From assembly GCA_016930635.1 (NCBI GenBank), contig JAFGGI010000012.1, positions 9,998-73,997 of the forward strand: a stretch of DNA of 64,000 nucleotides, in the 5' to 3' direction. Origin of the DNA: Sedimentisphaerales bacterium (GTDB lineage Bacteria; Planctomycetota; Phycisphaerae; Sedimentisphaerales; UBA12454). Made by a program: the position numbers and the translations under genes. Shown one piece after another: positions 2,451 to 18,763 of the stretch (the first letter of the stretch is position 1; each line of letters opens with the position of its first letter). The notes beneath the pieces were generated by a model. That model worked only from the letters and a program-made list of their open reading frames with translations, was not told where the DNA came from and did not search any database.

Positions 2451-3410
2451 ATGAGTGCTAAACAGGTGGTTGCGGTTGCGTTTTTATCGATTTTATTGTC
2501 TATTTCGGCCGGTTGCGGCCCGGCAGTAAAAATGGGGCTTAATCTGGCACCGCAGAGCGAAGCTACTTATAAAGTAATTACCAAATTCGGCAAGGATTAT
2601 TCATTTGTTCAACCTTCAATCAATAAAACCAAAGAGCGTCATACAGCCGTTGTGTTAGAAACAGTTTTTGTACAAAACGTCGAGAGTATTGACGCGGAAG
2701 GTAATATAACAGCGAAGATTACTATAAAAGATATTAAGTATTTCACGGAAGATGCCGACGGTCAGAAAGGCATGTTTGACAGTTATTCTGATGATCTGGA
2801 ATCTAATCCTGTATTTAAAATGCTGGGTAAGAGTTATGAAGTCAAATTAACACCTAACGGCCAGGTTATAGGAGTTGATGTTGCGGAAGCTAAGGAATCT
2901 GTAACAGGGGACGATTTTGCGAGGCGATTTTGTGATAAATTCCTAAGCGAAAAAGAAGTCAGGACGCGTCATCAGGTCCTTGCGTTGATGAATGCCGGCC
3001 AGAAGCTGTACAAGAAAGGTGATAAGTGGAGCGTAGTTGTTCCGGGTCCTGAAGGTATGCTTCGTCCCAAGTCATTTGAGAAAACTTATACCCTGACAGA
3101 TGTTAAGACGCAGGGTGAAGACGAGATAGCTGTTGTAGATATGGTTGCTGTTACCAGCTCAAAGCGTGCAGACGGGGTAGCCGAAGATGATGCAAAGATG
3201 AACTTTTTTTCAAAGATGTTCGATGAAACCGACCACTATACCGGCCAGATGAAGCTTAATTTAACTACTGGCCAAATAGACAGTTATCAGGAGTCACTGA
3301 AGGCGGAATGGGTTGCGATCGAACCGTCCTCAAAGCAGCCAAGTGACAAAGGTCCTGACCAGCTGACGATGAGTTTATGGCGTATGTATAGTATTGAGAA
3401 GGTAGAATAA
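2451..3410 (+). CDS. Lipoprotein of unknown function (paralog 1)
   Basis: Signal peptide plus lipobox (LLSISAGC). It shares blocks with the next ORF: GKSYEVKLTPNGQVIGVD vs GRSFTIKITPTGKIVDY, and KKGDKWS vs KKGHKWKS. Confidence 0.7.
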   Translation: MSAKQVVAVAFLSILLSISAGCGPAVKMGLNLAPQSEATYKVITKFGKDYSFVQPSINKTKERHTAVVLETVFVQNVESIDAEGNITAKITIKDIKYFTEDADGQKGMFDSYSDDLESNPVFKMLGKSYEVKLTPNGQVIGVDVAEAKESVTGDDFARRFCDKFLSEKEVRTRHQVLALMNAGQKLYKKGDKWSVVVPGPEGMLRPKSFEKTYTLTDVKTQGEDEIAVVDMVAVTSSKRADGVAEDDAKMNFFSKMFDETDHYTGQMKLNLTTGQIDSYQESLKAEWVAIEPSSKQPSDKGPDQLTMSLWRMYSIEKVE

Positions 3411-3530
3411 CTGCGGAACACAGAAACCATCTTTAATGTTTCGAGCAAGGCGAAAATGTTGTGTTCTAAAATTTGAATTATCTTTTTTTTAGTATGAATT
3501 AGCACACGGAATTATTCGCAGGTATCTATT

Positions 3531-4523
3531 ATGAGAAAATGGATTTTTGCGGGATTTTTTTTGGGGGTAAGTTTTTTTGTTTTAACAGGTTGTCAGGAGC
3601 AGCAGAGGTCGGCTGATTTTAAAGGTCCGCTGTTATTGAGTGTGGATTTTCAGTCTGGTGTTGCGCTGAGGTATAAGTTTGTCAGTGAAAGACAGATAGA
3701 GCTTGCGTTTGAATCGTCCGGTAAAGATGCCCGGAAAAGCGGTCGCAATCAGACATACAATGAAAAGCTTGAGATGGAGATTTCTTACAATCCGACAGAG
3801 ATAGACCCTTATGGTTATTCTGTGATAGAGGCGGTTTGTGATTCTGTTAAGGTTACCCGCAGTTCGCGAGATGGGCGTGGTCATAATAAGAGCGATGCGG
3901 TTGAATCTGCTGTTGGCAGGAGTTTTACAATTAAAATTACGCCGACCGGCAAGATAGTCGATTATACATCGCTTGAAAATTTGGTCAAAGAACTTGGCGG
4001 GAAGTCTTTTACTCAAACATCGAATTCCGGCAGGGTTAAAGATCCCGATATGATTATGGATTTTATTGCGACGCAGTGGCATTTATGGGATGCGGTATCG
4101 AGTGTAAAGAACCCGTTAAAGGGTCTTAAGAAGGGGCATAAGTGGAAATCTCAGATGTTGGCGCCGATGCCGTTTGTTTCTAAGAAGGGCAGAGACGTGG
4201 AGTATACCTTTGCGGGTACGGTTGATGTGAATGGTGTTTCGCTTGCTGAGATAACGAGCAGTTATACGTTGAGTGGATTGTCGCCGGAAGGGATACCCAT
4301 GCCTTATACGGGTTCGTTTCAGATGCGTGGTACTTTTGGTTTTTTAAGGGGTTATCAGGTTAATAGTCTTACCGGCAGGGGCAGACTTTTCTATGATATA
4401 GAAAGGGGTCTTATTCAGAGCGATGTCCAGCAGTATCATACTGAGGCGGCCGCTTCTGTTTTTGGTCTGGCTACAGCGAATTTGTCGATAGATCAGACTA
4501 TAACGATGACGTTGATGGAATGA
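3531..4523 (+). CDS. Lipoprotein of unknown function (paralog 2)
   Basis: Signal peptide plus lipobox (FVLTGC). Collinear with ORF 2451..3410. Confidence 0.7.
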   Translation: MRKWIFAGFFLGVSFFVLTGCQEQQRSADFKGPLLLSVDFQSGVALRYKFVSERQIELAFESSGKDARKSGRNQTYNEKLEMEISYNPTEIDPYGYSVIEAVCDSVKVTRSSRDGRGHNKSDAVESAVGRSFTIKITPTGKIVDYTSLENLVKELGGKSFTQTSNSGRVKDPDMIMDFIATQWHLWDAVSSVKNPLKGLKKGHKWKSQMLAPMPFVSKKGRDVEYTFAGTVDVNGVSLAEITSSYTLSGLSPEGIPMPYTGSFQMRGTFGFLRGYQVNSLTGRGRLFYDIERGLIQSDVQQYHTEAAASVFGLATANLSIDQTITMTLME

Positions 4524-4545
4524 AATATGGTATCAGGAGACTGAG

Positions 4546-5055
4546 TTGAACAGGAACAACCTTTGGGCGCCGTGGAGGATCGGATATATTCAGGGTTTGA
4601 GTGAAAAACAAGATTGTTTTATCTGTCATGACGTAAAACATCCGGCACAGGACGAGGATAATTTTGTGTTATGGCGTACTGAGAGGTCTCTTGTTGTTCT
4701 CAATAGATTTCCCTACAACAATGGTCATTTACTTTTGGCTCCTGTAAGGCATATTGCCGGGCTTGATGAACTGGATGATAAAGAGATGATCGAACTTACA
4801 AAACTTATAGTAGCCTCCCAAAAAGTATTGATGCTTGCGATAAAGCCTGGCGGTTTTAATGTTGGTATGAATTTTGGCAGGTGCGCGGGTGCTGGTTTGC
4901 CGGGGCACATGCATATTCATATAGTGCCGCGGTGGGACGGCGATACGAATTTTATGGCTATTTGCGGTAATACTGATGTTATAAGCCAGTCAATGAAGGA
5001 TTTATACCGGCAGCTGAAAACCATAAGCGCGGAAAACAATCTGCCGGAAATTTAA
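4546..5055 (+). CDS. HIT-family nucleotide hydrolase/transferase (Ap4A phosphorylase-like)
   Basis: Histidine triad GHMHIHIVPRW. The N-terminal LWAPWR block is typical of the GalT-like HIT branch. Uses a TTG start. Confidence 0.85.
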   Translation: MNRNNLWAPWRIGYIQGLSEKQDCFICHDVKHPAQDEDNFVLWRTERSLVVLNRFPYNNGHLLLAPVRHIAGLDELDDKEMIELTKLIVASQKVLMLAIKPGGFNVGMNFGRCAGAGLPGHMHIHIVPRWDGDTNFMAICGNTDVISQSMKDLYRQLKTISAENNLPEI

Positions 5056-5057
5056 TT

Positions 5058-6149
5058 ATGACGGAAAGAGTGAGTTTTTTTGCTGTAACAGAGGCATCCA
5101 GTAAAGGGAGGAGATTTAATGAGCCGGAACACGCCTACCGTTCTGCATTTGAGCGGGACAGGGACAGAATAATCCATACATCTGCGTTTAGGAGGCTTGA
5201 GGGCAAAACTCAGGTTTTCATGCCTCAGACAAATGACCATTATCGGACAAGACTTACCCATAGTATTGAAGTGGCCCAGATAGGCAGAACGATTGCGAAG
5301 TCGTTCGATTTAAATGAGGCTCTGACTGAGGCGGTTTGTCTTGGGCACGATTTGGGGCACAGTCCTTTCGGTCATAGCGGCGAGGCGGCACTTGACAAAC
5401 TGATGAAAGATTATGGCGGGTTCGAGCACAACGCTCAGACGCTGCGAATTGTTGATGTGCTTGAAAAGCCTTATCCTGATTTTGCCGGTCTGAATCTGAT
5501 GTATGAGACGAGACTTGCTCTGGCAAAACACAGAACTGTTTACGATACGCCGAAGTCAGATACTTTTACGGAGAAGAACTGTTCGCTGGAAGGGCAGATC
5601 GCTGATCTTGCCGACAGGATAGCGTATAACTGTCATGACCTTGAAGACGGCCTGCGGGCAAATCTGCTTGATTATGAAAAGGTTGTAACAGTTGGGCTGT
5701 GCAGCGGGGCTGCGAAGCGTTGTCAGGCGGAGAAGATCAGCAATAGTCTTATCAGAAATACACGGATTGCGAAAACGATAATAGATATGCTTGTCGGAGA
5801 TTGTATCGAAGCGAGCAGAGCAGCGATTGATTCAGCGGATATTAATGATTTAAAGCAGGTATTAAATAGTGATAAGAATTTTATAGTATTAAGTTCTGCT
5901 GCTGATGGTGCACTGGGTGAGCTTGAGGAGTTTTTGCATCAGAGTATGTATGAACATGAAGCGGTAAAAGCAGGTTCAGCTCAGTCGGCAGGCTGGCTGG
6001 GAAAAATCTTTAAAAAGTTCTGCAAGAAACCTGAACTGATGCCGGACTATTATCAGAACCTGGTTAGCGAATTTGGTCTGGAAAGAACGGTCTGTGATTA
6101 TATCGCGGGTATGACGGACTGGTATTGTCTGGAGATGCTGAATACTTAA
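5058..6149 (+). CDS. dGTP triphosphohydrolase-like HD-domain protein
   Basis: RTRLTHSIEVAQIGR and GHDLGHSPFGHSGE (HD motif), plus the C-terminal DYIAGMTD block of the dGTPase family. Confidence 0.85.
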   Translation: MTERVSFFAVTEASSKGRRFNEPEHAYRSAFERDRDRIIHTSAFRRLEGKTQVFMPQTNDHYRTRLTHSIEVAQIGRTIAKSFDLNEALTEAVCLGHDLGHSPFGHSGEAALDKLMKDYGGFEHNAQTLRIVDVLEKPYPDFAGLNLMYETRLALAKHRTVYDTPKSDTFTEKNCSLEGQIADLADRIAYNCHDLEDGLRANLLDYEKVVTVGLCSGAAKRCQAEKISNSLIRNTRIAKTIIDMLVGDCIEASRAAIDSADINDLKQVLNSDKNFIVLSSAADGALGELEEFLHQSMYEHEAVKAGSAQSAGWLGKIFKKFCKKPELMPDYYQNLVSEFGLERTVCDYIAGMTDWYCLEMLNT

Positions 6150-6324
6150 GGATACCTCTAAAAATTTGTTCGGGCGGCAGAGCGAATCTTTTTGTCGCCG
6201 GTCTGCGTTAGACAAAAGCCACTTTATCTATTGGATAAAGCTGATTTGTCTTCCTTGCCGGCGAGCAAAAATCTTCTACTTGCCGCTCAAAAGCAATTAT
6301 TAGAGCTACCCTATAATCTTTATT

Positions 6325-6801
6325 GTGAAAATGAAGAAGCTAATTTTATCCTGTTTTGGTCTTGGTTTTCTGCCGGGGGCGCCGGGAACGTGGGGAAGTA
6401 TCCCGCCTTTGGTGATTTTTCTTGTCTTTCATTATTTTTATCCGACGGCAGTTGCTTTGAGCATCCTGCTTGTCATTATGTTAATAGTGTCATCAATATT
6501 ATGTCTGCTGTTTGCAGGTGAAGCTGAGGAGCTGGCGGCCAAAAAGGATCCGAGCTGGATAGTTATAGATGAATTTGCAGGGCAGTCGGCGGCGTTGATA
6601 GCTGCTGCTTTTACGGGTGGTAAGGTTTTGCTTATGGCGGCGGGGGCGTTTTTACTTTTCAGGATTTTCGATATTGTAAAACCCTGGCCTGTATGCAGGG
6701 CTGAAAAGTTGCCGGGGGGGTTGGGGATACTGGCTGATGATATAGCAGCAGGAGTTCTGGCGGCGATTGTGCTGGGGATTATTGAGATTTTCATCATTTA
6801 A
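6325..6801 (+). CDS. pgpA: Phosphatidylglycerophosphatase A
   Basis: GLGFLPGAPGTWGS, VIDEFAGQ and FRIFDIVKPWP blocks. GTG at 6325, with an alternative ATG at 6331. Confidence 0.85.
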   Translation: MKMKKLILSCFGLGFLPGAPGTWGSIPPLVIFLVFHYFYPTAVALSILLVIMLIVSSILCLLFAGEAEELAAKKDPSWIVIDEFAGQSAALIAAAFTGGKVLLMAAGAFLLFRIFDIVKPWPVCRAEKLPGGLGILADDIAAGVLAAIVLGIIEIFII

Positions 6802-6875
6802 TACAAATTCTTGCATAGTCTCGTGTTATGGTATATCATTTCGGCGTTATTTTATTGTCCCTTTGAGATCGCTTT

Positions 6876-9308
6876 ATGACAGTTGAATATTCGGCTCAAT
6901 TTTGCAGAGATTTAGAGTCCCGGCTCGAACAGTTATCGCTGCTTCGGCCGATGAGGCGCCAAAGATATGAGAGCGGCACAGAGCTTGACTATGATCTTGA
7001 GCCGATAGGCAGCAGCGAGAAGGTCAGGGTAAAGCTGCAGGTCGAAAAATTTGTCGGCGGGGGGTTTGCAGGGCAGGTCTATAAGGTAAAAATACTCGAA
7101 ATTAGTAATCCGGATTTGTGTCCGGATTTAGAAGTTGGGCAAATCTGTGCGATAAAGATCCTCATACCGCCTTCGGGCTTTAGCAAACTGTTTCGAAATG
7201 CACTTTACTGGGTTGGCTTCAGCGGGCCTTTTCAGCTTCAGGTAAATCCTGCAGCGGCAAAGGCAGGGGCGTTATGGCAGAAATTTATCCGCAGGGCGGC
7301 AGGGATAAAGTTCGGCGATGAAAATTGTGTCGTTAATATCTTCGGTACATTTGTTGATGAGAATATGGGCAGCTGCGGCGAGATAAGCGAATGGATCGAA
7401 GGGCGGACCTGGCAGCTTGAAGTGGATGACCATGTTGACCTGCTGAAGAAATGGCGAAAGGCTCATATTCTTGATAATCCTAAGATCGGTTCGCCTGAGT
7501 ATCGGGCGAAATATACCTTTATGCATGAATTTGTAAAGCTTTTGCATGAAGTCGGGGCGCATGAGTTCGCAAGGCAATATGAATGGACGACACTCAAGAG
7601 TCAGCCTAACTGTCTCAAGCGTCTTGATGGTCAATCCGAGCCTGGTAATGGTCTTGTTGCGGTAGATTTTCGGGCGGGGCTTGCGCTGTTACCTTTTTTG
7701 CCGATGAGTCCTGGAGATTTTAAATTAATCTTTCAGGGTCTGAATCGCGGCTCATTGGTGCAGTTCGACAGGGGTGATTTGGATAAGTTAGGAGGGTTTA
7801 TCGGAATTCACCGGGAAAAATTCGGTGATATGCTGGGGCTGTTCGATAGGCTTGCTGAAGCTGAAGATATTTACAGAAATTCTATACCTGACATAACACA
7901 TAATCATATAAGGTTGTTTACCAGCGGCAAATTGTGGTCGACTATTTTTGACAGTGCCGTTGTCGGGTGGAAAGTAAAGGGAGTTGTTGATGAAAAGGCT
8001 TTTGACAAACTTCGCAAAAGCAGGGTTGGGACTTTTCTTTTCTTTTTAATCGGTTTGCTGCCGATATTAGGCAATTGTATTCGAAAGTTTTTCTGTCATA
8101 GTGATTGGCACAGGCATTATGTCAGTATTTTGACGAGCGCAGGGTATTTCAAAAAGGCTCTGGATGGTAAAATTATCGAAATGGTTACAGCCTGGCACAG
8201 AGGCGGGAGAGTTTCGCAGGCGAAGGCTGAGAACCTTTTGATCCAAAATTGGCGGATACTTTATCATCTGCCCTGTTTGATCCTGATATTTCCATCTTTG
8301 CACAGGATTTTGACGGATTGGCAATTTGCGAAGGAAAAGCTTTACTTTTTTACTGTCAGGCCGGTGAAGTTGTATTTCAATGCATCGCTTCGCAGGGAAT
8401 GGCTTGAGGATATGATAAAACAGGGACAGAAAAAACACATTCTTACTGATGAAGATGCGAAGACAATCCTTTCTCATATTGATGAGCCTTTCATACAGAA
8501 GTATCTTCAAAGTCTTGCGGTACATATATGTACACTTCCAGTGACGCAGATCGTTTCTGTTACGATAGCGTTTATTTACTGGATGACTCACAGGTATCAG
8601 GACAATGCCTGGGCGGTAGGTCTCGGGATAATTGCAGTTTTTCAGGTGATCCCTATTTCGCCGGGCTCGCTGACTCGCGGGATGTATGTAGTTTATATGG
8701 TTATAAAGGATAAAAGTTTTAAGGATTATAATATCGCGGTATTTTTGGGATTTTTTAAATATGTAGGCTATCTTGCCTTTCCGATACAGATGACTTACCG
8801 CTATCCTGCGCTGGCAAGGTTCATGGCTGCTCACTGGGCAACTGATGCGGTGCATATTGTTCCGGTATTCGGCGAAAGGGGCGCGCTGTTTGAACATGCG
8901 ATTTTCTGCATTTTTTATAACTGGCCATTGACGATTCGCAGACGGATGCGGGTAAGGGCCCAGGTACGTGAAAAAATGGCGGAACAGTATTGGCACATAC
9001 TTCCGATAGCTCTGGTGGCCGCATTGATACTGAGATTTATCGTACAATGGCATTTTAATATAGCTGTTGTTTTGCTTTGTCTTATCAGCGGGGCACTTAC
9101 GACAATATACTGCGGAAGGGCGGGTTTGTTGAAGAGATTTTCGGCGGCGGCGCTGGCCGGCCTTTTGGCATCTGTTTTATATACGATATTCAGTGCTTCC
9201 AATATGGGCATTTCAATATTGTACTTGTATTTCAGTTTCGCGATTATAGCGGTAATTGGGGCGATTTTGACGGAATTGTCTCTGCCTGATGTCGAAAATC
9301 ATCTTTAA
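6876..9308 (+). CDS. Fusion protein: N-terminal atypical kinase-like domain plus C-terminal polytopic membrane domain (function unknown)
   Basis: 810 aa. The N-terminal part has a Gly-rich loop (FVGGGFAGQVYKV), a beta3-type Lys (ICAIKIL), a hinge-like SEWIEG and a DFG-like VAVDFRAG. The C-terminal ~430 aa has many hydrophobic helices. It carries an IPISPGSLTRG loop reminiscent of the PGGLG loop of UPF0104/LPG-synthase-TM proteins. Confidence 0.6.
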   Translation: MTVEYSAQFCRDLESRLEQLSLLRPMRRQRYESGTELDYDLEPIGSSEKVRVKLQVEKFVGGGFAGQVYKVKILEISNPDLCPDLEVGQICAIKILIPPSGFSKLFRNALYWVGFSGPFQLQVNPAAAKAGALWQKFIRRAAGIKFGDENCVVNIFGTFVDENMGSCGEISEWIEGRTWQLEVDDHVDLLKKWRKAHILDNPKIGSPEYRAKYTFMHEFVKLLHEVGAHEFARQYEWTTLKSQPNCLKRLDGQSEPGNGLVAVDFRAGLALLPFLPMSPGDFKLIFQGLNRGSLVQFDRGDLDKLGGFIGIHREKFGDMLGLFDRLAEAEDIYRNSIPDITHNHIRLFTSGKLWSTIFDSAVVGWKVKGVVDEKAFDKLRKSRVGTFLFFLIGLLPILGNCIRKFFCHSDWHRHYVSILTSAGYFKKALDGKIIEMVTAWHRGGRVSQAKAENLLIQNWRILYHLPCLILIFPSLHRILTDWQFAKEKLYFFTVRPVKLYFNASLRREWLEDMIKQGQKKHILTDEDAKTILSHIDEPFIQKYLQSLAVHICTLPVTQIVSVTIAFIYWMTHRYQDNAWAVGLGIIAVFQVIPISPGSLTRGMYVVYMVIKDKSFKDYNIAVFLGFFKYVGYLAFPIQMTYRYPALARFMAAHWATDAVHIVPVFGERGALFEHAIFCIFYNWPLTIRRRMRVRAQVREKMAEQYWHILPIALVAALILRFIVQWHFNIAVVLLCLISGALTTIYCGRAGLLKRFSAAALAGLLASVLYTIFSASNMGISILYLYFSFAIIAVIGAILTELSLPDVENHL

Positions 9309-9388
9309 AACAAGGCAGATTTTATTACTTGTCCTCAGCGGTATTTTATGAGAGAATAGGGCTGAATTGGTTTTATGGAGTAGGATTT

Positions 9389-10138
9389 ATGTCGATTAGT
9401 TATAGTTCTTTATGCGACGATTTTTTCGTTGATATGTATATAAACACCCGTTTTGACCTGCCGAACGAGAGGGATATTCTGCTGACGTTTTTTGAGAGGA
9501 TTTCCAGGCAGTTTCCTTTGATGCAGTCGCTTATACGTGACGGCGGCAGCAGTTACAGCCTTGAAGAAGACCCAAATTCAGGGCAAAACCGCTGGGTAAG
9601 TATAGACAGCGACCGTCTCGGTGCAGGTTTCGTCAATCCCGACAGTTTCGCCCAGGCCTTCGAGCTGCCCAGGCTTGTAATCGACCTTATTCCATATATG
9701 CTGTCGGTGCGAAGCCTGGATATTGACAGTCTTGACCTGACGTTCGGGATGGATTTTGACTGTTCCGGGAATCATAACGAAATAATAGCTGAGGCGTTGT
9801 TTGGCGGCTCGGCTTTTGCGAAGATTTTTGACGGCAGTCCCGGACCGCTTAATCTTTCACCTTCGGTAGTTGTAGCGACTGATGATGACTGTACTACTCG
9901 TATGAAACTGACGGTAGATTCCAAAACGGATGAGTCTGAAATCCGCAGAAAGAAATTCGATAAGGATAAACCCATAAGTCTGTATCTGACAGCAAGACAG
10001 TATCCTGCAGTGGGAAAGGATTTTAATCCGAAAGAAGTTTTTGAAAGGCTTAGCCGGGCAGCAGTTGAATTTATGGATGAAAAAGTTGTGCCGAATTTTG
10101 TGATGCCGCTGACTAATGCTATAGCGCACAGGAGATAG
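9389..10138 (+). CDS. Hypothetical cytoplasmic protein
   Basis: ORF-track entry 9329..10138. I prefer the ATG at 9389, which has GGAG 9 nt upstream (MSISYSSLCDDFF). No motif I can name. Confidence 0.55.
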   Translation: MSISYSSLCDDFFVDMYINTRFDLPNERDILLTFFERISRQFPLMQSLIRDGGSSYSLEEDPNSGQNRWVSIDSDRLGAGFVNPDSFAQAFELPRLVIDLIPYMLSVRSLDIDSLDLTFGMDFDCSGNHNEIIAEALFGGSAFAKIFDGSPGPLNLSPSVVVATDDDCTTRMKLTVDSKTDESEIRRKKFDKDKPISLYLTARQYPAVGKDFNPKEVFERLSRAAVEFMDEKVVPNFVMPLTNAIAHRR

Positions 10139-10170
10139 AAAGTACAGAGAAGAATTTATGGAGATGAGAA

Positions 10171-10632
10171 ATGGCAGTTGTAGCGCCGCTGGCAAAATTT
10201 AAAAAAACAAATTTTAAAATATATATTGCTGCTTTGCTGATCGGGGCAGCCTATTTTGCTTATGACGGTTTTTTTAATAAAAAGTTTATAGAGAAGCATA
10301 CCGTCGATGACAAGCCCGACTCTACGCTTGTTTTTAATCAGAAAGCACCGCCTTTTCTTTTGGCCGGTGCCGTGGTTATGGCAGTCTGGTTCGTGATGGT
10401 GAAGGATAAAAAGCTGATTGCTGAAGATACTGAGCTTGTTTTCAGCGATAAAGATAAGATTCCTTATAATTCGATAGAGAGTATAAACAAGACAAATTTT
10501 GAATCGAAGGGTTTTTTCTTTATAGAATATAAAACCAGTGACGGTAAAATTTCACAGCGTAAAGTAAGTGACCGGACTTATGATAATCTCGGCGCAGTTC
10601 TTGAAGTAGTTGTGTCAAAAATCACAGGCTGA
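10171..10632 (+). CDS. Small membrane protein: two TM helices plus a bacterial PH-like C-terminal domain (tentative)
   Basis: 153 aa. Two hydrophobic helices (IYIAALLIGAAYFAY, PFLLAGAVVMAVWFVMV) are followed by a ~75-aa beta-rich segment. The fold assignment is by eye only. Confidence 0.55.
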   Translation: MAVVAPLAKFKKTNFKIYIAALLIGAAYFAYDGFFNKKFIEKHTVDDKPDSTLVFNQKAPPFLLAGAVVMAVWFVMVKDKKLIAEDTELVFSDKDKIPYNSIESINKTNFESKGFFFIEYKTSDGKISQRKVSDRTYDNLGAVLEVVVSKITG

Positions 10633-10638
10633 AACTAA

Positions 10639-10732
10639 TTGAAGATTGAAAATTGAACATTGAAAAATTTAAACAATTCTGCCAGAGGCAGTTCCGCAAA
10701 TCTTCATTCTTCAATCTACAATCTTCATTTTT
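10639..10732 (+). terminator. Long imperfect hairpin plus T-run; terminator of the 6876-10632 operon
   Basis: TGAAGATTG (10639-10647) pairs with CAATCTTCA (10718-10726). Further imperfect pairing continues inward, with an apical CTGCC-AGA-GGCAG stem. TTTTTT follows at 10727-10732. Confidence 0.55.
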
Positions 10733-10768
10733 TATTTGTGTTGATTTATGTTCATTTATGGTTTTTAA

Positions 10769-12055
<1,287 letters not shown>

Positions 12056-12061
12056 AAATTT

Positions 12062-12847
12062 TTGGAATCGAAACCGCAACCATCGATAAAGGAAAATCGT
12101 ATAGCAACAGCCAAAAGACTTGGTATTGCTGAGGAAAAAATACCACGTCATATTGCGATTATAATGGACGGCAACGGCCGGTGGGCAACGAACAGAGGGC
12201 TACCGCGTTTTCATGGACACAGGCAGGGCGCTCGCGCGATAGAGAAAGTTATAGATCATTGCGTCGATGTCGGCCTGGAATGTGTTACCCTGTATTCATT
12301 CAGTCTGCAAAACTGGAAAAGACCGAAATTAGAGATAGCCTTTCTTATGAAGCTTTATATTCGGTATCTTGTCGGGATAAGAAAGACGCTGAAAGAGCAT
12401 AATGTAAGACTTGTTCATCTCGGCCGGACGGCAAAACTTCCTCCCAAACTTGTCAGGGAACTTAATAAAACGATAGAGATAACCTCGGAGTATACAGGTA
12501 TGGTTCTCGCGCTTGCATTGAACTACGGCAGCAGGGAGGAGATAGTTGATGCGACGAAAAAGATATGTCGCGATTGTGCTGATGGTAAAATGGATATTGA
12601 GCAAATCGATGAACAGTGTATAAGTGAAAATCTTTACAGTGCGACCCTGCCGGAGCCTGATCTGCTTATCCGGACTTCTAATGAGAATCGGTTGAGTAAT
12701 TTTCTCTTATGGCAGCTTTCATATGCTGAGTTTTATGTAACCGAGACTCTCTGGCCGGACTTCAGTCCTGAAGATATTGACAAGGCTATAATCGAATATT
12801 CAAAACGTTCGAGACGTATGGGTGATATTAAACCTGCTGTGATTTAA
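12062..12847 (+). CDS. uppS: Undecaprenyl-diphosphate synthase
   Basis: HIAIIMDGNGRWA and LIRTSNENRLSNFLLWQLSYAEF. Uses a TTG start. Confidence 0.9.
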   Translation: MESKPQPSIKENRIATAKRLGIAEEKIPRHIAIIMDGNGRWATNRGLPRFHGHRQGARAIEKVIDHCVDVGLECVTLYSFSLQNWKRPKLEIAFLMKLYIRYLVGIRKTLKEHNVRLVHLGRTAKLPPKLVRELNKTIEITSEYTGMVLALALNYGSREEIVDATKKICRDCADGKMDIEQIDEQCISENLYSATLPEPDLLIRTSNENRLSNFLLWQLSYAEFYVTETLWPDFSPEDIDKAIIEYSKRSRRMGDIKPAVI

Positions 12848-12867
12848 AATTTTATCGGGGACTTTTG

Positions 12868-13731
12868 ATGCTTAAACACAGACTTATTTTCGGTACGTTG
12901 ATGACTGTTGCTTTTATCGGATTGGTATTATTCGATGCCTGGCTTGACGGCAGTTTCGGTTCTGAGAAAAGTTATTGTCCTGTATATGCAACCTTGCTGA
13001 CGACTTTTCTGGTTATTGTAGCGATGCCGGCGAATCTTGAATTGTCAAGTCTGGCAAATTCTGCGGGGGCGAAAATATTTCTTCCAATTACGATTCCGGG
13101 TACAATTCTGCTTTCTACGGCTTGGTATTGGGCACAGTTTTTTGAGAACAGATATGAGTTTATGGCTTTATTTTTTGCCTTTTTTCTCTGCATTTATCTT
13201 CTTTTAATTTTTTTGTGGCAGGGAATCAAGTTTGCTTCTGTCGGTGCATTTGCCAATCTTGGCGGGAATCTTATAGCTTTAATTTATCTTGGAATGCTTA
13301 CAAGTTTAGTCCTGGCGGTGAGGATTGATTTTGGGCCCTTTGCATTTTTGATGTATATTTTTGTTGTAAAGTGTTCTGATATAGGAGCTTATACGGCAGG
13401 ACGGCTTTTCGGCAGGCACAAATTTTCACCGGTTTTAAGTCCTAAAAAAACATGGGAGGGTATGGCAGGGGCGTGTATTTTTGCCGCAGTTGTATCCTCG
13501 ATATTTGCAAAAGTCTTTGGTATAATGGGCCCGCAGCAGGCGATTTTATTCGGTATTATCTTTGCTTTTGCCGGGCAGCTTGGCGATCTGGCTGAGTCGA
13601 TGCTTAAACGTGCTGCCGAGAAAAAGGATTCGTCGGGCAGTGTTCCCGGTTTTGGCGGGATACTGGATGTGATTGACTCGCCGCTGGCAACAGGTGTTTT
13701 GGCATATTTGTTTTTTATGTTAATCAGCTGA
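12868..13731 (+). CDS. cdsA: Phosphatidate cytidylyltransferase
   Basis: Polytopic membrane protein. C-terminal signature SMLKRAAEKKDSSGSVPGFGGILDVIDS. ATG at 12868 (the ORF track starts at TTG 12865). Confidence 0.9.
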   Translation: MLKHRLIFGTLMTVAFIGLVLFDAWLDGSFGSEKSYCPVYATLLTTFLVIVAMPANLELSSLANSAGAKIFLPITIPGTILLSTAWYWAQFFENRYEFMALFFAFFLCIYLLLIFLWQGIKFASVGAFANLGGNLIALIYLGMLTSLVLAVRIDFGPFAFLMYIFVVKCSDIGAYTAGRLFGRHKFSPVLSPKKTWEGMAGACIFAAVVSSIFAKVFGIMGPQQAILFGIIFAFAGQLGDLAESMLKRAAEKKDSSGSVPGFGGILDVIDSPLATGVLAYLFFMLIS

Positions 13732-13740
13732 TTAATCTGT

Positions 13741-14688
13741 ATGGAGAAGACAATACAACTTAGTTCTGCGGGCAGTCGGCTGGAGCTTTTCGGTTCCGGC
13801 GACGAGCATCTGAAGATAATGCGTGCCCGCTGCGGTGTTAAGATTACCGCAAGGGATGACGAGGTTATTCTTAACGGGGGCAATGCTGAAATAAAAAAGG
13901 CAGCAAAAGTTCTCGAACTGATGCAAAAGCACCTGTCTAAATTCGGCAAGCTTGATGCTAATGATGTAATCGGCCTGATGAGCAAAGTCGAGGTTAATGT
14001 CGATACTGATGAGAATTTTGGTGTTCAGGTTTACTCTCCTAAAAGAACGGTGAAACCGTTTACCCGTGGTCAGAGGCGTTATATAGAGTCGATGCTGAAT
14101 TCTGATCTGACCTTTTGTACAGGGCCGGCCGGTACCGGCAAAACATATCTTGCCGTTGCGGTTGCAGTTTCGATGTTGAGGAAAAAGCAGATAAGAAAGA
14201 TAGTCCTGGCACGTCCTGCGGTCGAGGCTGGTGAGAAACTCGGATTTCTGCCCGGCGATATGCAGGCGAAGGTGAATCCGTATTTAAGGCCGCTGTTCGA
14301 CAGTCTTGAGGATATGATGGACTTTTCACAGATGCGTAAGCTGATAGATATGGATATAATAGAAGTAATTCCGCTGGCGTTTATGCGCGGCAGGACTCTG
14401 AATGAAGCGGCTGTTATCTGTGACGAGGCTCAAAATACTTCTCCATCGCAGATGCTGATGTTTCTGACAAGGATGGGCAGGGGTTCTAAGATGATTATCA
14501 CAGGCGATGTTACCCAGGTTGACCTCGAAAGGGGCAGCAGAAGCGGAATGCTTGATGCGATGGAAACTTTAGCCGGTACAGATGGAATATCTTTAATAGG
14601 TCTTGATGATACCGATATAGTAAGGCATAATCTTGTGCAGAATATTGTTCAGGCTTATGAAGCTAAAAAGAAAAAACATAAGCATTAA
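13741..14688 (+). CDS. phoH: PhoH-family ATPase
   Basis: Walker A GPAGTGKTYLAVA, Walker B-like AVICDEAQN, and an N-terminal KH-like segment. Confidence 0.9.
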   Translation: MEKTIQLSSAGSRLELFGSGDEHLKIMRARCGVKITARDDEVILNGGNAEIKKAAKVLELMQKHLSKFGKLDANDVIGLMSKVEVNVDTDENFGVQVYSPKRTVKPFTRGQRRYIESMLNSDLTFCTGPAGTGKTYLAVAVAVSMLRKKQIRKIVLARPAVEAGEKLGFLPGDMQAKVNPYLRPLFDSLEDMMDFSQMRKLIDMDIIEVIPLAFMRGRTLNEAAVICDEAQNTSPSQMLMFLTRMGRGSKMIITGDVTQVDLERGSRSGMLDAMETLAGTDGISLIGLDDTDIVRHNLVQNIVQAYEAKKKKHKH

Positions 14689-14691
14689 TTT

Positions 14692-16221
14692 ATGGCTATA
14701 CTGAAGAAAAAAATAAGTCCTCGCCGTAAACAGGTCAGGGAGAATATTGCTGCTGAAAGGTTTGCAAGGGCGAGTACGTTTATCAACAGCGGTATGCTTT
14801 TGTCGCTTTTGATGCTTATTGGTTTTGTTGGAGCGTGTTCTTTTCTCTTAAGCACTGTTACCGAGCCGGGCAGGATAAATTTTCGTCCATGGCCTCAGAT
14901 CATTTCAATTATTCTTATTACAACGGGTATTGCATTTGGGATATCGGTATATATTTATCGTTATAATCACAGGATAGTCAAAAACCACATAAGAGCTTTT
15001 GCCCTTAGCAGTTTGCTTATTTTGCTTTTAGCTATGGCAAGACTGGGTTACTTTTTTCCAAGGAACAGTATTTTTATTGCCCTGGCTTTTGCCGTAACTT
15101 GCGCGATAATTCTTACAATTGCTTATGACCAGCGGTTTGCCATTGGCATAAGTATTTTCTTCGCACCTCTTATTTGTTTTGCTATAGGCCGGGAAACGGA
15201 TTTTGCACTCTTTCTGATAATGGCGGCAGGGATTATTACGAGTTGTTTTCTGCTCAAGGAGATAAGAACTCGTACAAAGCTCCTTGAAGTGGGTGTTTTT
15301 TCCGGAGTAGCTGTTTTTGGAATATGTTTTGCAACAGGTCTTTTGGCCGATGGTTTGAGCGGTTCTCTTTTTAAAACTTCCGGATGGATGGCAGCAGCGA
15401 CGGTTCTTGTCGGCATAATTATCCAGGCGCTTTTGCCTCTTGTGGAAAAATCTTTTCGAATTGCTACCAGTATGACCCTGCTGGATTACAGCGATGCAAA
15501 TCAGCCTTTACTTAAAAGACTTGCGATGGAGGCTCCGGGGACGTTTAGTCATAGTCTGCTGATAGGTTCGATTGCAGAAACTGCTGCCGAAGCTATTGGA
15601 GCGAACGGTCTTTTGTGCAGGGTGGGGGCTTATTATCACGACATCGGAAAGATCGGCAAGCCTCGTTATTTTGTCGAAAATCAGATGGGTACAGCCAGTC
15701 GTCACGATCAGCTTTCGCCGGCAATGAGTCAATTAATCATCGTCGGCCATGTTAAAGATGGTATTGAGATGGCCAAGGAATACAGGCTGCCGGCGGTGAT
15801 AAGACAATTTATCGAGACTCATCACGGTACGACGCTTATAGAATATTTTTATGCGGAGGCAAAAAAGAAGACAGACGACCAGACTGCGCCGCCAAGCGAG
15901 TCAGAATTTCGCTATCCCGGGCCGCGGCCGCAAACCAAAGAGGCTGCGATAGTTATGCTTGCTGACGCGATTGAAGGAGCGGTTCGGTCTCTTACAGAAG
16001 TAACGCCAACGAAGATAGAGACAGTGGTTCATAATATGGCTATGAAGCGTCTTCAGGATGGTCAGTTCGATGAATGTGAACTTACGCTTCGGGAGTTGAG
16101 CAGGATAGAAGATGCAATGTCAAAAAGTCTGGCGGCCCATCATCACGGCCGAATCGCCTATCCTAAATCTGACGAAGAACCTGAACAATCTACAGAAGAT
16201 AAAGAGCAAGATGCCCGATAA
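14692..16221 (+). CDS. 7TM-HD membrane phosphohydrolase (PgpH/YqfF-like)
   Basis: The N-terminal half is multi-TM. The C-terminal half is an HD domain (FSHSLLIG, AYYHDIGK, ETHHGT). Confidence 0.8.
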   Translation: MAILKKKISPRRKQVRENIAAERFARASTFINSGMLLSLLMLIGFVGACSFLLSTVTEPGRINFRPWPQIISIILITTGIAFGISVYIYRYNHRIVKNHIRAFALSSLLILLLAMARLGYFFPRNSIFIALAFAVTCAIILTIAYDQRFAIGISIFFAPLICFAIGRETDFALFLIMAAGIITSCFLLKEIRTRTKLLEVGVFSGVAVFGICFATGLLADGLSGSLFKTSGWMAAATVLVGIIIQALLPLVEKSFRIATSMTLLDYSDANQPLLKRLAMEAPGTFSHSLLIGSIAETAAEAIGANGLLCRVGAYYHDIGKIGKPRYFVENQMGTASRHDQLSPAMSQLIIVGHVKDGIEMAKEYRLPAVIRQFIETHHGTTLIEYFYAEAKKKTDDQTAPPSESEFRYPGPRPQTKEAAIVMLADAIEGAVRSLTEVTPTKIETVVHNMAMKRLQDGQFDECELTLRELSRIEDAMSKSLAAHHHGRIAYPKSDEEPEQSTEDKEQDAR

Positions 16222-16699
16222 AAAAGATGCATCCGATATTACCGTTAATGTGAATATCAGCTGTGATACTGTAAGTTTCGATCAGCAAAAAATGATTAGT
16301 ATGATTAGTACTGTTACAGGACAGTTTGGAATAGAAAAGGCCGATATAAATTTTGCTGTTCTTGGTGATGAGGAGATAATAAAGCTGAATCAGAAATTTC
16401 TCAACAGGACTGATACTACAGATGTTATCAGTTTTGATGTCTCGGATGCGGAGGATTTAAAGGTTTTTGATATTGCTGTAAATGCCGAGATGGCGCAGAG
16501 ACAAGCCTGTCAGGCAGGACATAGCGCCGAATCGGAACTTGCGTTGTATTTTCTGCACGGTTTGCTGCATAATCTCGGGTTTGGAGATTGCTGCGATGAA
16601 GAAGCGGCTAAGATGCATAAAACCGAAGATGAAATTCTTGAAAAGTTCGGGTATGGTATTGTATATAATAAGGGCAGGGCGAATCAGCCGGATAGCTGA
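16211..16699 (+). CDS. ybeY: rRNA maturation endoribonuclease YbeY
   Basis: LHGLLHNLGFGD aligns with the YbeY HGxLHLxGYDH metal site. The third ligand position reads Asp. I set the start to the ATG at 16211 (MPDKKD), which overlaps the upstream gene by 11 nt. The ORF-track start at 16112 lies inside that upstream gene. Confidence 0.85.
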   Translation: MPDKKDASDITVNVNISCDTVSFDQQKMISMISTVTGQFGIEKADINFAVLGDEEIIKLNQKFLNRTDTTDVISFDVSDAEDLKVFDIAVNAEMAQRQACQAGHSAESELALYFLHGLLHNLGFGDCCDEEAAKMHKTEDEILEKFGYGIVYNKGRANQPDS

Positions 16700-16724
16700 T
16701 ATTTTTTGAAAGGATAGAAAGACA

Positions 16725-18002
16725 GTGGCTGGTCTTGGATGGCAAATCTTAGGAATTATTCTTCTTTTAGCGGCGGGAACGGTTTTTTCGCTGAATGCTA
16801 TTGCCGCGAGGATATTCTCGCACGTTAAGATACAGGAAATTTTCAGAAATATGAATAAAGAGGGGTATGCTGAAAAATTCTTTGCGGAAAGCCAGAAGGT
16901 AGTTTTGCTCTGTTCATTGATAGTTGTCTTTACAGATATTCTTATAACTCTTCTACTGCTGAGGCTGTTTAGTATTTCGATGGAATTGTCTCTATCGATA
17001 GCAGCGGTTTGTACTGCTTTGACGGCTTTTTTGCTGATGGGTTTTTTTGAAGTGGTTGTTGCCGGGGCATGGGCTTTATATGCCGGCGAAGAAGTACTTG
17101 GAAGGACTTACCCGATTCTGCATCTGGCCACTCTGGTTCTTTCGCCTTTCGAGTCATTTTTTAAACTGCATGATATTATAGTCCAGCGTCTTGCAGGTGT
17201 TCCTCAGGGCAGCGAAGAACAGCAGGAAGAAAAGCAGGAGGAGTTTTTAAATGTTGTCGAGCAGGGTAAAATGGAAGGTATTGTGGATGAAGTCGAACAG
17301 GAGATGATAGAGCATGTTCTTGAACTGAGCGACAAGACGGTCGAAGAGATTATGACGCCGCGAACCGATATTATAGCGATGAAAGTTGACAGTGATTTGC
17401 CGAAGGTTCTTGAGACGATAACTGCTGAAGGACATTCGAGAATACCTGTTTATGAAGAAAATATTGATACCGTAATCGGGCTTGTCTATGCGAAGGACCT
17501 GCTCGACCAGTTCGGTAAACGTTCGGAGGAATTTAAGCTGAGGGAAAAGCTAAGGGAGGCGTATTTTGTACCTGAGACAAAAACGCTTCGCCAGTTGCTG
17601 CGTGAATTTCAGGAGCAAAAGCTTCATATAGCTATCGTTCTGGATGAGTATGGCGGAACAGCGGGAATTGTTACCATAGAGGATATCATTGAAGAAGTAG
17701 TCGGCGAAATTACCGATGAATACGAAGAGCGGCCGCCGCAGAGTACTAAACGAATAGATGAATCTACGGTTGAGGTTGATGCAAGAGTGTATATAGATGA
17801 TTTTAACGAGGAATTTGAAACAGAACTGCCCGAAGAGGAAGATTATGACACTCTGGGCGGTTTTGTATTTTCACATCTGGGCTATATACCCCATAAAGAT
17901 GAGACTTTTGAATATGCAAATCTGAAGTTTACGATAACCTCTTCGGAAAAGCGGAAAATCAACCGGATAAGGATTCAAAAACTCTCACATCAGGAAGGTT
18001 AG
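16725..18002 (+). CDS. CorC/TlyC-type CBS-domain transporter-associated protein (DUF21-CBS-CorC_HlyC)
   Basis: Four N-terminal TM helices, a CBS pair (EIMTPRTDI, YGGTAGIVTIEDIIEEVVGEI) and a C-terminal CorC_HlyC-like segment. Uses a GTG start. Confidence 0.85.
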   Translation: MAGLGWQILGIILLLAAGTVFSLNAIAARIFSHVKIQEIFRNMNKEGYAEKFFAESQKVVLLCSLIVVFTDILITLLLLRLFSISMELSLSIAAVCTALTAFLLMGFFEVVVAGAWALYAGEEVLGRTYPILHLATLVLSPFESFFKLHDIIVQRLAGVPQGSEEQQEEKQEEFLNVVEQGKMEGIVDEVEQEMIEHVLELSDKTVEEIMTPRTDIIAMKVDSDLPKVLETITAEGHSRIPVYEENIDTVIGLVYAKDLLDQFGKRSEEFKLREKLREAYFVPETKTLRQLLREFQEQKLHIAIVLDEYGGTAGIVTIEDIIEEVVGEITDEYEERPPQSTKRIDESTVEVDARVYIDDFNEEFETELPEEEDYDTLGGFVFSHLGYIPHKDETFEYANLKFTITSSEKRKINRIRIQKLSHQEG

Positions 18003-18007
18003 ACCTG

Positions 18008-18763
18008 ATGCTGAGAAAGGATAAGGGAATTTGTATCCGCACAACTGATTATTCTGAAACTTCTCAGATACTTACCTTTTTTACAGCTGATACCGGCAAG
18101 TTAAGCGTAATAGCCAAGGGAGCGAAAAGACCTAAGTCATCTTTCGGGGGACCTATTGAACTTTTGACGGCGGGAGATATGGTTTTTTCCGTCAAAGATA
18201 GTGAAAAGCTCGGCACACTTACTGAATTTAATCCGACTTTTCTCGGATTTACACTTCGTAAAAAGCTTTTTGCCCTTAATTGTGCTCTATTTACCGCTGA
18301 GCTGCTGAATTTATTTACAAAAGAGCTCGATCCACATCCTTCTATCTTCGATGCGGCGATTATCCTTTTGCGAACGCTCGATAAGGACCCTGATAACCAG
18401 GCTCTGAGCAAACTTATCCTTTTTGAATTTACACTTTTAGAAGAAACAGGCTCAAGTCCTGTTTTTGACAGATGTATAAACTGTAAAAGAGATTTTGATG
18501 CGAACTGGAAACAATATTACTTTGCTGTGTCGGATAACGGTATAGTCTGCCGCGACTGCGAAGCGGCCTTTGTTGATAAAAGAGTGATAAGCAGAGAGAC
18601 GGCAGCCTATCTGAACAAATCTGATAATATCCCTCAGGCCGATTGGGGCGTGCTGGTGTCTATACAAAATCTTTTGATTGAATATATCACGCATATTCTT
18701 GAAAGGCCGCCGAGAACTGCAGTAACGATTTTAAAGCTTATAAACTCAAAAAAACAGATATAG
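18008..18763 (+). CDS. recO: DNA repair protein RecO
   Basis: N-terminal OB-fold pattern (GICIRTTDYSETSQILTFFT, KGAKRPKS) and a Cys4 zinc finger (CINC ... CRDC). Sits in the conserved position after ybeY/corC. Confidence 0.85.
   Translation: MLRKDKGICIRTTDYSETSQILTFFTADTGKLSVIAKGAKRPKSSFGGPIELLTAGDMVFSVKDSEKLGTLTEFNPTFLGFTLRKKLFALNCALFTAELLNLFTKELDPHPSIFDAAIILLRTLDKDPDNQALSKLILFEFTLLEETGSSPVFDRCINCKRDFDANWKQYYFAVSDNGIVCRDCEAAFVDKRVISRETAAYLNKSDNIPQADWGVLVSIQNLLIEYITHILERPPRTAVTILKLINSKKQI

Follow-up and report, generated by a model that had tools for sequence, protein, structure and literature searches.

The synthesis of phospholipids in bacteria is commonly seen as a completely mapped pathway, though gaps remain. 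The UbiB/ABC1/COQ8 proteins combine a protein-kinase-like (PKL) fold with membrane anchoring and a lipid role; they show ATPase or switch behaviour rather than protein phosphorylation, and they set the precedent for ATPases of this fold that act on lipids. In UbiB, the catalytic Asp is retained; the protein also carries KxGQ and Ala-rich-loop signatures and has one or two C-terminal transmembrane (TM) helices. The active site of the membrane-embedded PgpA of Escherichia coli is thought to face the cytoplasm. In Mycobacterium tuberculosis, MviN/MurJ consists of an N-terminal membrane domain, the MurJ envelope-lipid flippase, and a cytoplasmic pseudokinase domain of the ActPs3 family, which is regulatory and has lost the three catalytic motifs and ATP binding (PMC12599244). 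Pseudokinases are operationally defined by the loss of at least one of the VAIK-Lys, the HRD-Asp and the DFG-Asp (PMC12599244, PMC4718504). Here, we describe a protein of 810 amino acids (aa), referred to below as the large protein, which is encoded at 6876..9308 on the + strand of a 64,000-nucleotide (nt) stretch of DNA from the metagenome-assembled genome of a Sedimentisphaerales bacterium (Planctomycetota, Phycisphaerae; assembly GCA_016930635.1, contig JAFGGI010000012.1, positions 9,998 to 73,997). This whole stretch is called the window, and all positions refer to it unless a locus is named. The large gene follows directly after pgpA, and its product, the founding member in this analysis of an unnamed family, joins a kinase-like domain at its N-terminus to a membrane module.

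As an analogy, the MviN/MurJ-pseudokinase pair is architecturally the nearest to this protein: in both, a membrane protein is fused to a kinase-fold domain that lacks catalytic residues. Unlike in MviN, the kinase-like domain precedes the membrane module in the large protein, with the Lys, Asn, Asp and Gly-loop positions retained, and this membrane module has no known relative; a sequence relationship between the large protein and the MviN/MurJ pseudokinase was not detected. UbiB/COQ8 is functionally the nearest analogue, at undetectable sequence similarity, and the large protein lacks an ABC1 Pfam match as well as the KxGQ and Ala-rich-loop signatures. With eukaryote-like kinases and pseudokinases, whose closest solved folds are those of GSK3-beta (1q5k), VRK1 (6csw), BubR1 (6jkk), CK2-alpha, Mps1 and ROP5, the domain is predicted to share a bilobal fold, a GxGxxGxV loop, an A-x-K Lys, a catalytic-loop Asn and a DFG-type Asp. 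In contrast to them, it has neither an HRD Asp nor an obvious alphaC Glu, it carries a helical insert between beta3 and alphaC (residues 101-123), and it is fused to a large membrane module. PgpA is a membrane-embedded neighbour and fusion partner, and the large protein itself is not PgpA-like (0.1% probability in a profile-profile comparison). Searches of the accessible literature for a bacterial family with a kinase-like/PgpA or kinase-like/polytopic architecture turned up no account of the present family. An initial annotation of the window, made from the sequence alone, knew of no described system with such an architecture, and the curated libraries and the literature agree with it: the multi-phylum family to which the large protein belongs had not been described before.

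The preferred reading, to which we give a probability of roughly 45%, is that the large protein is an ATP-binding, non-canonical kinase-fold membrane protein that would act as a nucleotide switch on a lipid-head-group site and would work together with PgpA. The observations behind it are the fold class, the conservation of the motifs, the spread of the family, the adjacency to pgpA and the fusions to PgpA. The novelty lies in a deeply divergent PKL family, in its membrane module and in the well-supported association with PgpA.

The kinase-like domain

The N-terminal ~345 aa (residues ~1-345, 6876..7910, + strand; presumed cytoplasmic) very probably adopt a protein-kinase-like fold, as judged from Foldseek searches with predicted structures and from the order of secondary-structure elements, which fits a kinase N-lobe and C-lobe. 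The AlphaFold2 (AF2) model was built from an alignment of 96 sequences (A4) that reaches down to 23% identity and includes the Chloroflexota clade; its predicted local distance difference test (pLDDT) score was 88.5 and its predicted template-modelling (pTM) score 0.84, with no segment below a pLDDT of 50. An earlier AF2 model from 28 close homologs had a pLDDT of 69, with ~30 at the catalytic segment 237-297, and it was the addition of the Chloroflexota clade to the alignment that mended this segment. The weaker first model gave the same kinase fold matches. All of the 50 Foldseek matches to the Protein Data Bank (PDB) that were listed are protein kinases or pseudokinases, and they include GSK3-beta, VRK1, BubR1, CK2-alpha, Mps1, AAK1 and ROP5/18. 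Foldseek probabilities ranged from 0.6 to 1.0 (mostly 1.00) over 213-460 aligned columns, with 213-380 columns for most of the matches, and the best E-value was 1.8e-3.

The initial annotation had pointed to kinase-like motifs in this domain. These motifs lie on the expected secondary-structure elements of the model, and their conservation indicates that they are far from chance: G63, G66, V68, K94, N245, D264 and G268 are invariant in the 96 sequences, as are P593, P596 and R601 of the membrane module. The Gly-rich loop region, FVGGGFAGQVYKVKIL (residues 59-74), contains the loop GGGFAGQVY (residues 61-69, 7056..7082, + strand) with the pattern GxGxxGxV between the predicted strands 50-62 and 67-76, and G61, F64, A65 and Q67 of this loop are at least 90% conserved in the same sequences. 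The segment ICAIKIL (residues 90-96) carries the 'VAIK'-type beta3 lysine in A92-I-K94 (7149..7157, + strand), within the predicted strand 90-95. No sequence of A4 departs from K94, and in alignment A2, which holds members at 23-50% identity, the residue is at least 90% conserved; the member P0264 has YALRVF at this position there. The hinge-like segment quoted earlier, GEISEWIEGRTW, corresponds to residues 168-179. The DFG-like element D264-F-R-A-G268 (7665..7679, + strand; consensus D-x-R-x-G) lies in LVAVDFRAGLA (residues 260-270), after the predicted strand 260-262; in this element, D264 and G268 never vary, and R266 is kept in at least 90% of the sequences.

For the catalytic loop, the initial annotation saw no obvious HxD in HEVGAHEFARQYEWTTLKSQPNCL (residues 224-247), and indeed none is present there. 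The equivalent segment is RQYEWTTLKSQPN (residues 233-245, 7572..7610, + strand), which ends with the invariant N245 just before strand 246-249. Among members at 23-50% identity, R233, Q234, W237 and N245 of this segment are invariant, with T239, S242 and Q243 kept in at least 90% of the sequences. None of the aligned members has the catalytic Asp of the HRD motif; in its place, at position 240 (N245 minus 5), stands a variable hydrophobic residue (L, W, C, M, F or V). With the HRD Asp missing and the Lys and the DFG-Asp retained in the aligned members, the domain can be classed, under the operational definition above, as pseudokinase-type with its putative nucleotide and metal ligands kept, and we infer that it binds ATP-Mg. 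The earlier proposal of an atypical kinase or a pseudokinase is thus supported.

The same annotation suggested two kinase families as possible relatives, and neither was recovered. For UbiB/ABC1, there was no Pfam match, and the hhalign comparison with E. coli UbiB gave a probability of 0.3%, so that this relationship was rejected. For Kdo/WaaP, compared through Pfam and the fold matches only, there was likewise no Pfam match, and the fold matches listed are eukaryote-type protein kinases. More generally, no kinase-family match in Pfam or NCBIfam was obtained for the whole large protein, its two halves and 27 further close members at E <=1, or for 10 divergent members at E <=0.1 (Pkinase, ABC1, APH, RIO, Kdo and others). 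A Pfam run on the separate halves and a structure prediction had been proposed as checks; the halves remained without a match, and the model predicts a kinase fold for the N-terminal part. Pfam, NCBIfam and PADLOC searches with the large protein itself returned no match, and PDB sequence searches with a single sequence and with three profiles gave only chance-level matches for the large protein and for the 249-aa protein encoded downstream of it. Since PADLOC had no match, PHROGs yielded one sub-threshold match (E 0.08), to the large protein, and the context is a housekeeping one, a defence-system or phage origin was discarded. Two homologs carry the label 'YrzE family', which was traced to weak DUF3792/YrzE matches (best E 0.0085; 2 of 28 members) and carries no meaning.

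The membrane module and the distribution of the family

Beyond the kinase-like domain, the first hydrophobic segment is at residues 383-407 (8022..8096, + strand), a helix-break-helix with a hydropathy peak at 384-402. It is kinked at the invariant P396, which is flanked by the predicted DSSP helices 383-393 and 398-407, and it could be the first of the TM helices or else a membrane hairpin of the re-entrant type. A soluble all-helical region follows (residues 409-533, 8100..8474, + strand), with a family-averaged hydropathy of at most ~0.5 except at 465-469 (1.30) and with H414, Y424, W440, R477, R506 and W509 conserved. The conserved membrane module (residues 538-698, 8487..8969, + strand) has the invariant residues P593, P596, R601, G631, P663, G666 and P684. 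It is composed, in order, of a long hydrophobic helix (538-571), a helix-break-helix with the motif PISPGS..R (residues 593-601, 8652-8678, + strand; within IPISPGSLTRG, residues 592-602), amphipathic helices, PVFGxRG (663-669) and an Arg-rich C-terminal helix. This module is only moderately hydrophobic and contains helix-break-helix hairpins. The two Pro-kinked hairpins could be re-entrant, in which case the whole conserved core would lie at the cytoplasmic leaflet. The last part, residues ~705-802 (8988..9281, + strand), is a clade-specific tail of four strongly hydrophobic TM helices (hydropathy 2.0-2.7). It is missing in the ~680-770-aa Chloroflexota and other divergent members, and in the members fused to PgpA the PgpA domain follows the core about where the tail starts. 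The C-terminal ~430 aa had been described as polytopic, which holds for the four TM helices (708-802) but not for residues 403-533, which are soluble and helical, nor quite for the moderately hydrophobic core.

No membrane-protein fold was among the 50 Foldseek matches listed, and the membrane module is, by sequence comparison, of a new kind. The PISPGS loop had been likened to that of UPF0104/LPG-synthase-TM proteins. This comparison was rejected: PF03706 was not matched in 38 members (E <=1 or 0.1), the hhalign probability against YbhN was 0.1%, and MprF was not among the 50 fold matches listed. The two have in common only that a short loop rich in Pro and Gly links hydrophobic helices and that phospholipid genes lie nearby (E. 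coli ybhN adjoins clsB). The possibility that the module or the four-TM tail is a cryptic PgpA, with PISPGS corresponding to PGAPGT of PgpA, was also rejected; hhalign of A4 against the PgpA profile (A8) gave 0.1%, and the resemblance of the two loops is superficial rather than homologous by this test.

In a reduced member of 504 aa, P0299, the Gly-loop, the RQYEW..N segment and residues ~277-490 are gone, and the 494-696 module is well preserved. Because the module is retained where the kinase motifs are degraded, this member suggests that the membrane module carries the indispensable function and that the kinase-like domain would modulate it. The P0299 gene begins right at the stop codon of a gene with the SIS+CBS architecture of KdsD/KpsF-type arabinose-5-phosphate isomerases, to which it is translationally coupled, and next comes a gene for a PpiD-like chaperone (L096:6029-8515, L097:5078-7564), which suggests that this subfamily is tied to Kdo/lipopolysaccharide or envelope biogenesis.

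The family is large. More than 3000 homologs of the large protein, all annotated as 'hypothetical', are present in a database clustered at 90% identity; an exhaustive HMMER scan resolved the family into 559 clusters at 50% identity, and relatives occur in at least 585 species genomes of GTDB. Members are named from Phycisphaerae/Sedimentisphaerales, other Planctomycetota, Kiritimatiellia, Desulfobacterales-type metagenome-assembled genomes (MAGs) and Chloroflexota. The best 80 GTDB loci were fetched, in which all relatives are at least 55% identical, and across the same loci the conservation of the large protein is similar to that of uppS and phoH. Divergent members (23-42% identity, ~680-770 aa) cover profile positions ~20-690, and the conserved core therefore ends near residue 700.

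Full-length copies with 55-57% identity to the Phycisphaerae protein, four-TM tail included, were found in MAGs labelled Desulfobacterales, Desulfatibia or delta-proteobacterium, and a few such copies carry the labels Cloacimonadota, Cytophagia or Pseudomonadota. Their loci (L031, L037, L046, L049, L061-L063, L067, L070, L072-L075, L077, L083) have unrelated contexts, which suggests that the gene moved between phyla by itself or that these MAGs are systematically mis-binned. Another member from Planctomycetota, P0267 (1216 aa; L092:8001-11651), has a C-terminal extension of ~500 aa with extra hydrophobic segments and a weak GDSL-lipase match (E 0.02). A GDSL lipase gene (L091:13924-14571) also lies 3.7 kb from the divergent member P0259. 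The GDSL lipase is a possible further link to lipids that is too weak to use.

Association with PgpA and the proposed mechanism

The gene directly upstream of the large gene (6325..6801, + strand) encodes a 158-aa protein of the phosphatidylglycerophosphatase A family (Pfam PF04608, 128.2 bits, cutoff 28, E 2.8e-37), which covers positions 2-140 of the 141-position profile, in agreement with the earlier assignment of pgpA. Against the NCBIfam equivalog PRK11068, the protein scored 76 bits, far under the cutoff of 226, so that it is a member of the family and not a proven equivalog of the phosphatidylglycerophosphate (PGP) phosphatase. In the window, the gap between the two genes is 75 nt. Among the best 80 species loci, 66 had enough flank, and in 53 of these pgpA lies directly 5' of the large gene on the same strand, with a median gap of ~53 nt. 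Adjacency and gap (~50 nt) persist also at loci with other genes further upstream.

Two family members, P0253 (890 aa) and P0264 (876 aa), end with a Pfam PgpA domain (90 and 57 bits, respectively, cutoff 28), which in P0253 occupies residues 735-877, after the core. These two proteins are 42% identical over their full length, PgpA domain included, and the fusion is therefore old and maintained. It is present in independent assemblies from JGI, Logan and NCBI, and it is not a read-through artefact because the order of the domains, the large protein and then PgpA, reverses the order of the genes. The fusion gene of the loci L086 and L087 faces, in convergent orientation, a separate pgpA and a gene for a cytidine diphosphate (CDP)-alcohol phosphatidyltransferase, whose best match is PgsA TIGR00560 (96.5 bits, under the 109-bit cutoff). 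The initial annotation had inferred an envelope-lipid modifying or sensing module, and this idea is much strengthened by the PgpA fusions and by the near-universal adjacency to pgpA in Phycisphaerae.

From these data we infer a switch mechanism, a lipid substrate and a topology. A cytoplasmic kinase-like domain would be rigidly joined to a new, partly re-entrant membrane module, as the model suggests. The domain appears to keep the ligands of ATP-Mg, namely the GxGxxGxV loop, Lys94, Asn245 and the DFG-like Asp264, and is predicted to bind ATP-Mg; nucleotide binding or slow hydrolysis would then drive a conformational switch. The switch would control a lipid-head-group site, formed by the invariant Arg/Pro/Gly motifs of the membrane module at the cytoplasmic leaflet. 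The partner would be PgpA, as a PGP phosphatase, and since the protein would work with PgpA, it would act on or regulate the branch from PGP to phosphatidylglycerol (PG), or a related lipid-phosphate step. The local unit would comprise pgpA, the large gene and two lineage-specific accessory genes, for a soluble 249-aa and a membrane-anchored 153-aa protein.

Several points weigh against this proposal. As to the fold, no Foldseek match reached E <1e-3, the target-normalised TM-score was ~0.3 and the root-mean-square deviation was 6-20 A, and the fold matches share only ~13-18% identity with the domain; the marginal E-value and the TM-score of ~0.3 imply that the domain is very divergent. Sequence profiles tie it to no kinase family (Pfam, NCBIfam, PDB and the hhalign comparison with UbiB). 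The helix equivalent to alphaC (125-146), in which A127, G131, W134, Q135 and R139 are conserved, has no conserved Glu. As to the partner, PgpA homologs of Bacillus subtilis are dispensable for PG synthesis (PMC11804483), and deletion of pgpA in E. coli lowers the signal of a thiamine pyrophosphate (TPP) reporter (PMC11143247). PgpA-family proteins are thus not always PGP phosphatases, and the lipid concerned may not be PGP. As to the context, a consistently adjacent lipid gene was not found in the loci examined outside Phycisphaerae and the fusion clade; of the loci examined outside Phycisphaerae, the fusion locus (pgsA-like gene and pgpA) and that of P0299 (KdsD-type gene) alone gave a neighbour of note, and the adjacency to pgpA within Phycisphaerae could partly reflect inherited synteny of a housekeeping block.

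It is also conceivable, though unlikely, that the large protein is a real enzyme, that is, a non-canonical membrane-embedded phosphotransferase such as a lipid or lipid-phosphate kinase that cycles with PgpA. Such an enzyme would transfer the phosphoryl group to an already anionic acceptor (phosphate or carboxylate), for which no Asp general base is needed. The invariance of the G-loop, K94, N245 and D264 across four phyla is more typical of catalysis than of a scaffold; the many conserved arginines (R107, R233, R506 and R601 invariant; R177, R266, R334 and R477 at least 90%) would fit an anionic substrate; and opposing activities would be a logical reason for fusion or adjacency to a lipid-phosphate phosphatase. 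However, the catalytic Asp is absent and no alternative conserved acidic residue stands at the equivalent position, whereas APH, choline kinase, WaaP and UbiB, the small-molecule or lipid kinases of the same fold, keep this Asp. The P0299 subfamily, which lost the G-loop and the Asn and keeps the membrane module, also argues against catalysis. A bolder form of this idea, which we consider more doubtful still, is a class of membrane-embedded kinase-fold enzymes that phosphorylate or activate an anionic lipid head group without the canonical Asp, with PgpA as the dedicated opposing or downstream phosphatase. If true, Planctomycetota, Kiritimatiellia, Desulfobacterales and Chloroflexota would have an unrecognised ATP-dependent step or regulatory cycle in their PG/cardiolipin or lipid-carrier metabolism.

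It is improbable that the protein is an ATP-driven lipid transporter or extractor, in which a kinase-fold ATPase motor would move PG, PGP or another lipid via the membrane module. The predicted rigid coupling of the nucleotide-binding domain to the module (pTM 0.84) and, by analogy, the UbiB/COQ8 precedent would suit such a motor, and PG, which PgpA produces at the cytoplasmic leaflet, has to be flipped; the PG flippase is among the unidentified steps of a published pathway scheme (PMC11804483). On the other hand, there is no similarity to UbiB (hhalign 0.3%) or to the MprF/UPF0104 flippase domains, the catalytic Asp for hydrolysis is absent, and the core fits poorly with a translocation pathway because it has few clear spanning helices and looks partly monotopic or re-entrant.

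A role unrelated to lipids is a little less probable again. The protein would then be a housekeeping membrane sensor or a scaffold pseudokinase, for instance in signalling for the cell envelope or for division, the adjacency to pgpA would be inherited synteny, and the fusion to PgpA would be a neutral joining of two membrane proteins. In favour of this, the neighbours beyond Phycisphaerae and the fusion clade vary and are for the most part not lipid genes, and the Phycisphaerae block is itself a mixture of housekeeping genes (purA, phoH and a 7TMR-HD gene, with ybeY and recO in relatives). It is opposed by the fusion, which is maintained down to 42% identity and in one case lies beside pgsA-like and pgpA genes, by the steady gap of ~50 nt to pgpA although the upstream genes differ, and by the coupling of the reduced member P0299 to a KdsD-type gene.

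The occurrence in at least 585 species genomes, a conservation equal to that of uppS in the loci compared, the absence from Pfam, NCBIfam and the PDB, and the link to PgpA through gene order and natural fusion single this family out. It is on these grounds a candidate, concrete and open to testing, for a regulatory or enzymatic part that anionic-lipid metabolism still lacks, in phyla with poorly understood envelopes (Planctomycetota and other bacteria of the Planctomycetes-Verrucomicrobia-Chlamydiae group, and Chloroflexota). With this family, the protein-kinase-like superfamily gains a deeply divergent branch in which the nucleotide-binding residues are kept and the catalytic Asp is absent, which bears on the uses of pseudokinase-type domains in bacteria.

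Accessory genes and surroundings of the unit

The open reading frames (ORFs) of 810, 249 and 153 aa and the motifs quoted by the initial annotation were all found where it had placed them, on the + strand. The large protein is 100% identical to NCBI JW806_01795 and the 249-aa protein (p249) to JW806_01800. The mechanical ORF of p249 starts with TTG at 9329; every homolog starts with MSISY, which corresponds to ATG 9389, and this ATG is therefore taken as the true start (9389..10138, + strand). The p249 protein is soluble and restricted to the neighbourhood of the large gene in Phycisphaerae. It has 366 homologs, all unannotated, and gave no match in Pfam, NCBIfam, PDB, PADLOC or PHROGs, consistent with the earlier remark that it contains no recognised motif.

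The third gene (p153; 10171..10632, + strand) encodes a 153-aa protein with two N-terminal TM segments (13-35 and 59-77) and a small beta-rich C-terminal domain of ~75 aa that ends in a helix. Among 24 orthologs, 4 matched DUF986, where the best E-value of 2.3e-4 stayed under the gathering score, and 2 matched bPH_3 (E 0.077); hhalign against E. coli YobD gave a probability of 57% (E 1e-4) over 80 collinear columns. The C-terminal domain is thus possibly DUF986/YobD-like or bacterial-PH-like; the two TM helices reported earlier are present, and the PH-like domain reported with them is a plausible candidate, with weak bPH_3 matches.

The two genes accompany the large gene in one lineage. In 43 eligible Phycisphaerae-type loci, p249 lies 3' of the large gene in 38 and p153 in 41; four Phycisphaerae-type loci have the large gene and then p153, without p249. 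A SPASM-type radical-SAM gene stands between the large gene and p249 in 11 of the 43. This inserted gene encodes 474 aa at L001:10573-11997, and 10 other loci have an insert of more than 1 kb. Its best NCBIfam matches are mycofactocin maturase, NirJ2 and AhbD, all far below their cutoffs, and it was not accepted as a lipid gene since no lipid-specific assignment was obtained. Desulfobacterales-type loci (at least 12, each with a full-length copy at 55-57% identity) lack pgpA, p249 and p153 alike and are variably flanked. Next to the Chloroflexota, Kiritimatiellia and other Planctomycetota copies examined, these three genes are missing as well. Since copies elsewhere stand without them, the large protein is self-sufficient, and p249 and p153 are accessory at most.

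The locus had been described as a three-gene operon led by the large gene, and conservation of the gene order in relatives had been proposed as a check. The order is indeed kept in Phycisphaerae-type loci, but it is absent from the loci of other clades examined, and most plausibly pgpA rather than the large gene heads the unit, which is better delimited as pgpA plus three genes. It is highly improbable that p249 and p153 are obligatory partners of the large protein in a dedicated three-gene module: their frequency in Phycisphaerae-type loci and the short intergenic gaps would favour this, but they are missing beside the large gene in Desulfobacterales-type, Chloroflexota, Kiritimatiellia and fusion-clade loci, p249 can be lacking where p153 is present, the radical-SAM/SPASM gene can intervene, and the downstream hairpin is not conserved.

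This hairpin, with which the unit had been said to end, is AU-rich and imperfect and is followed by a U-tract (~10639-10737, + strand; minimum free energy -22.1 kcal/mol, z -1.79 against shuffles). Its left arm consists of four tandem TTGAAnn heptads and its right arm of their reverse complement, around the GC mini-stem CTGCCAGAGGCAG. In the window, the hairpin is unique, with self-matches only (0.08 expected by chance), and a simple terminator scan detected the GC mini-stem on the opposite strand only and missed the long hairpin. The hairpin and the U-tract thus exist, but the z-score is modest and the structure is not conserved: of five relatives folded, only the closest (L004, 84% identical) keeps it, with one extra heptad, L005 has a different GC hairpin, and L002, L010 and L013 have gaps of 46-57 nt before purA without a hairpin. 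It was therefore not retained as a conserved terminator that marks the boundary of the unit. It is possible that it is a local terminator, and it could instead be a protein-binding palindrome.

Downstream of the unit lie purA, uppS, cdsA, phoH and a 7TMR-HD gene, as identified by orthology to Pfam-annotated neighbours, which also bears out the earlier report of uppS/cdsA downstream. The unit sits within an 18-gene co-directional run (2451-19852). This packed run is broken after the 7TMR-HD gene by 504 nt without an ORF of at least 100 aa (16222-16724), in which no Rfam family reached the gathering threshold. Elsewhere in the window, a tmRNA gene was found at 54400-54754 on the - strand, scoring 169 bits in Rfam and with the tag peptide GNYQLAMAA according to ARAGORN; on the opposite strand, ~170 nt away, lies a 6S RNA gene (54926-55109, + strand; 74.7 bits). 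The 141-aa mechanical ORF 54631-55056 (- strand) that overlaps both RNA genes is almost certainly spurious.

Just 5' of purA, the motif (A/C)(A/T)TTCGT(G/A)(G/A/T)TTTTTT, with a purine-rich stretch after it, was recognised by eye in several relatives (L002:11827-11883, L004:4547-4696, L005:6690-6775, L010:11797-11849 and L013:11880-11925). It may be a conserved leader or a regulatory element for purA. The window has a weaker version of it at ~10745-10777, CATTTATGGTTTTTAAGGG.

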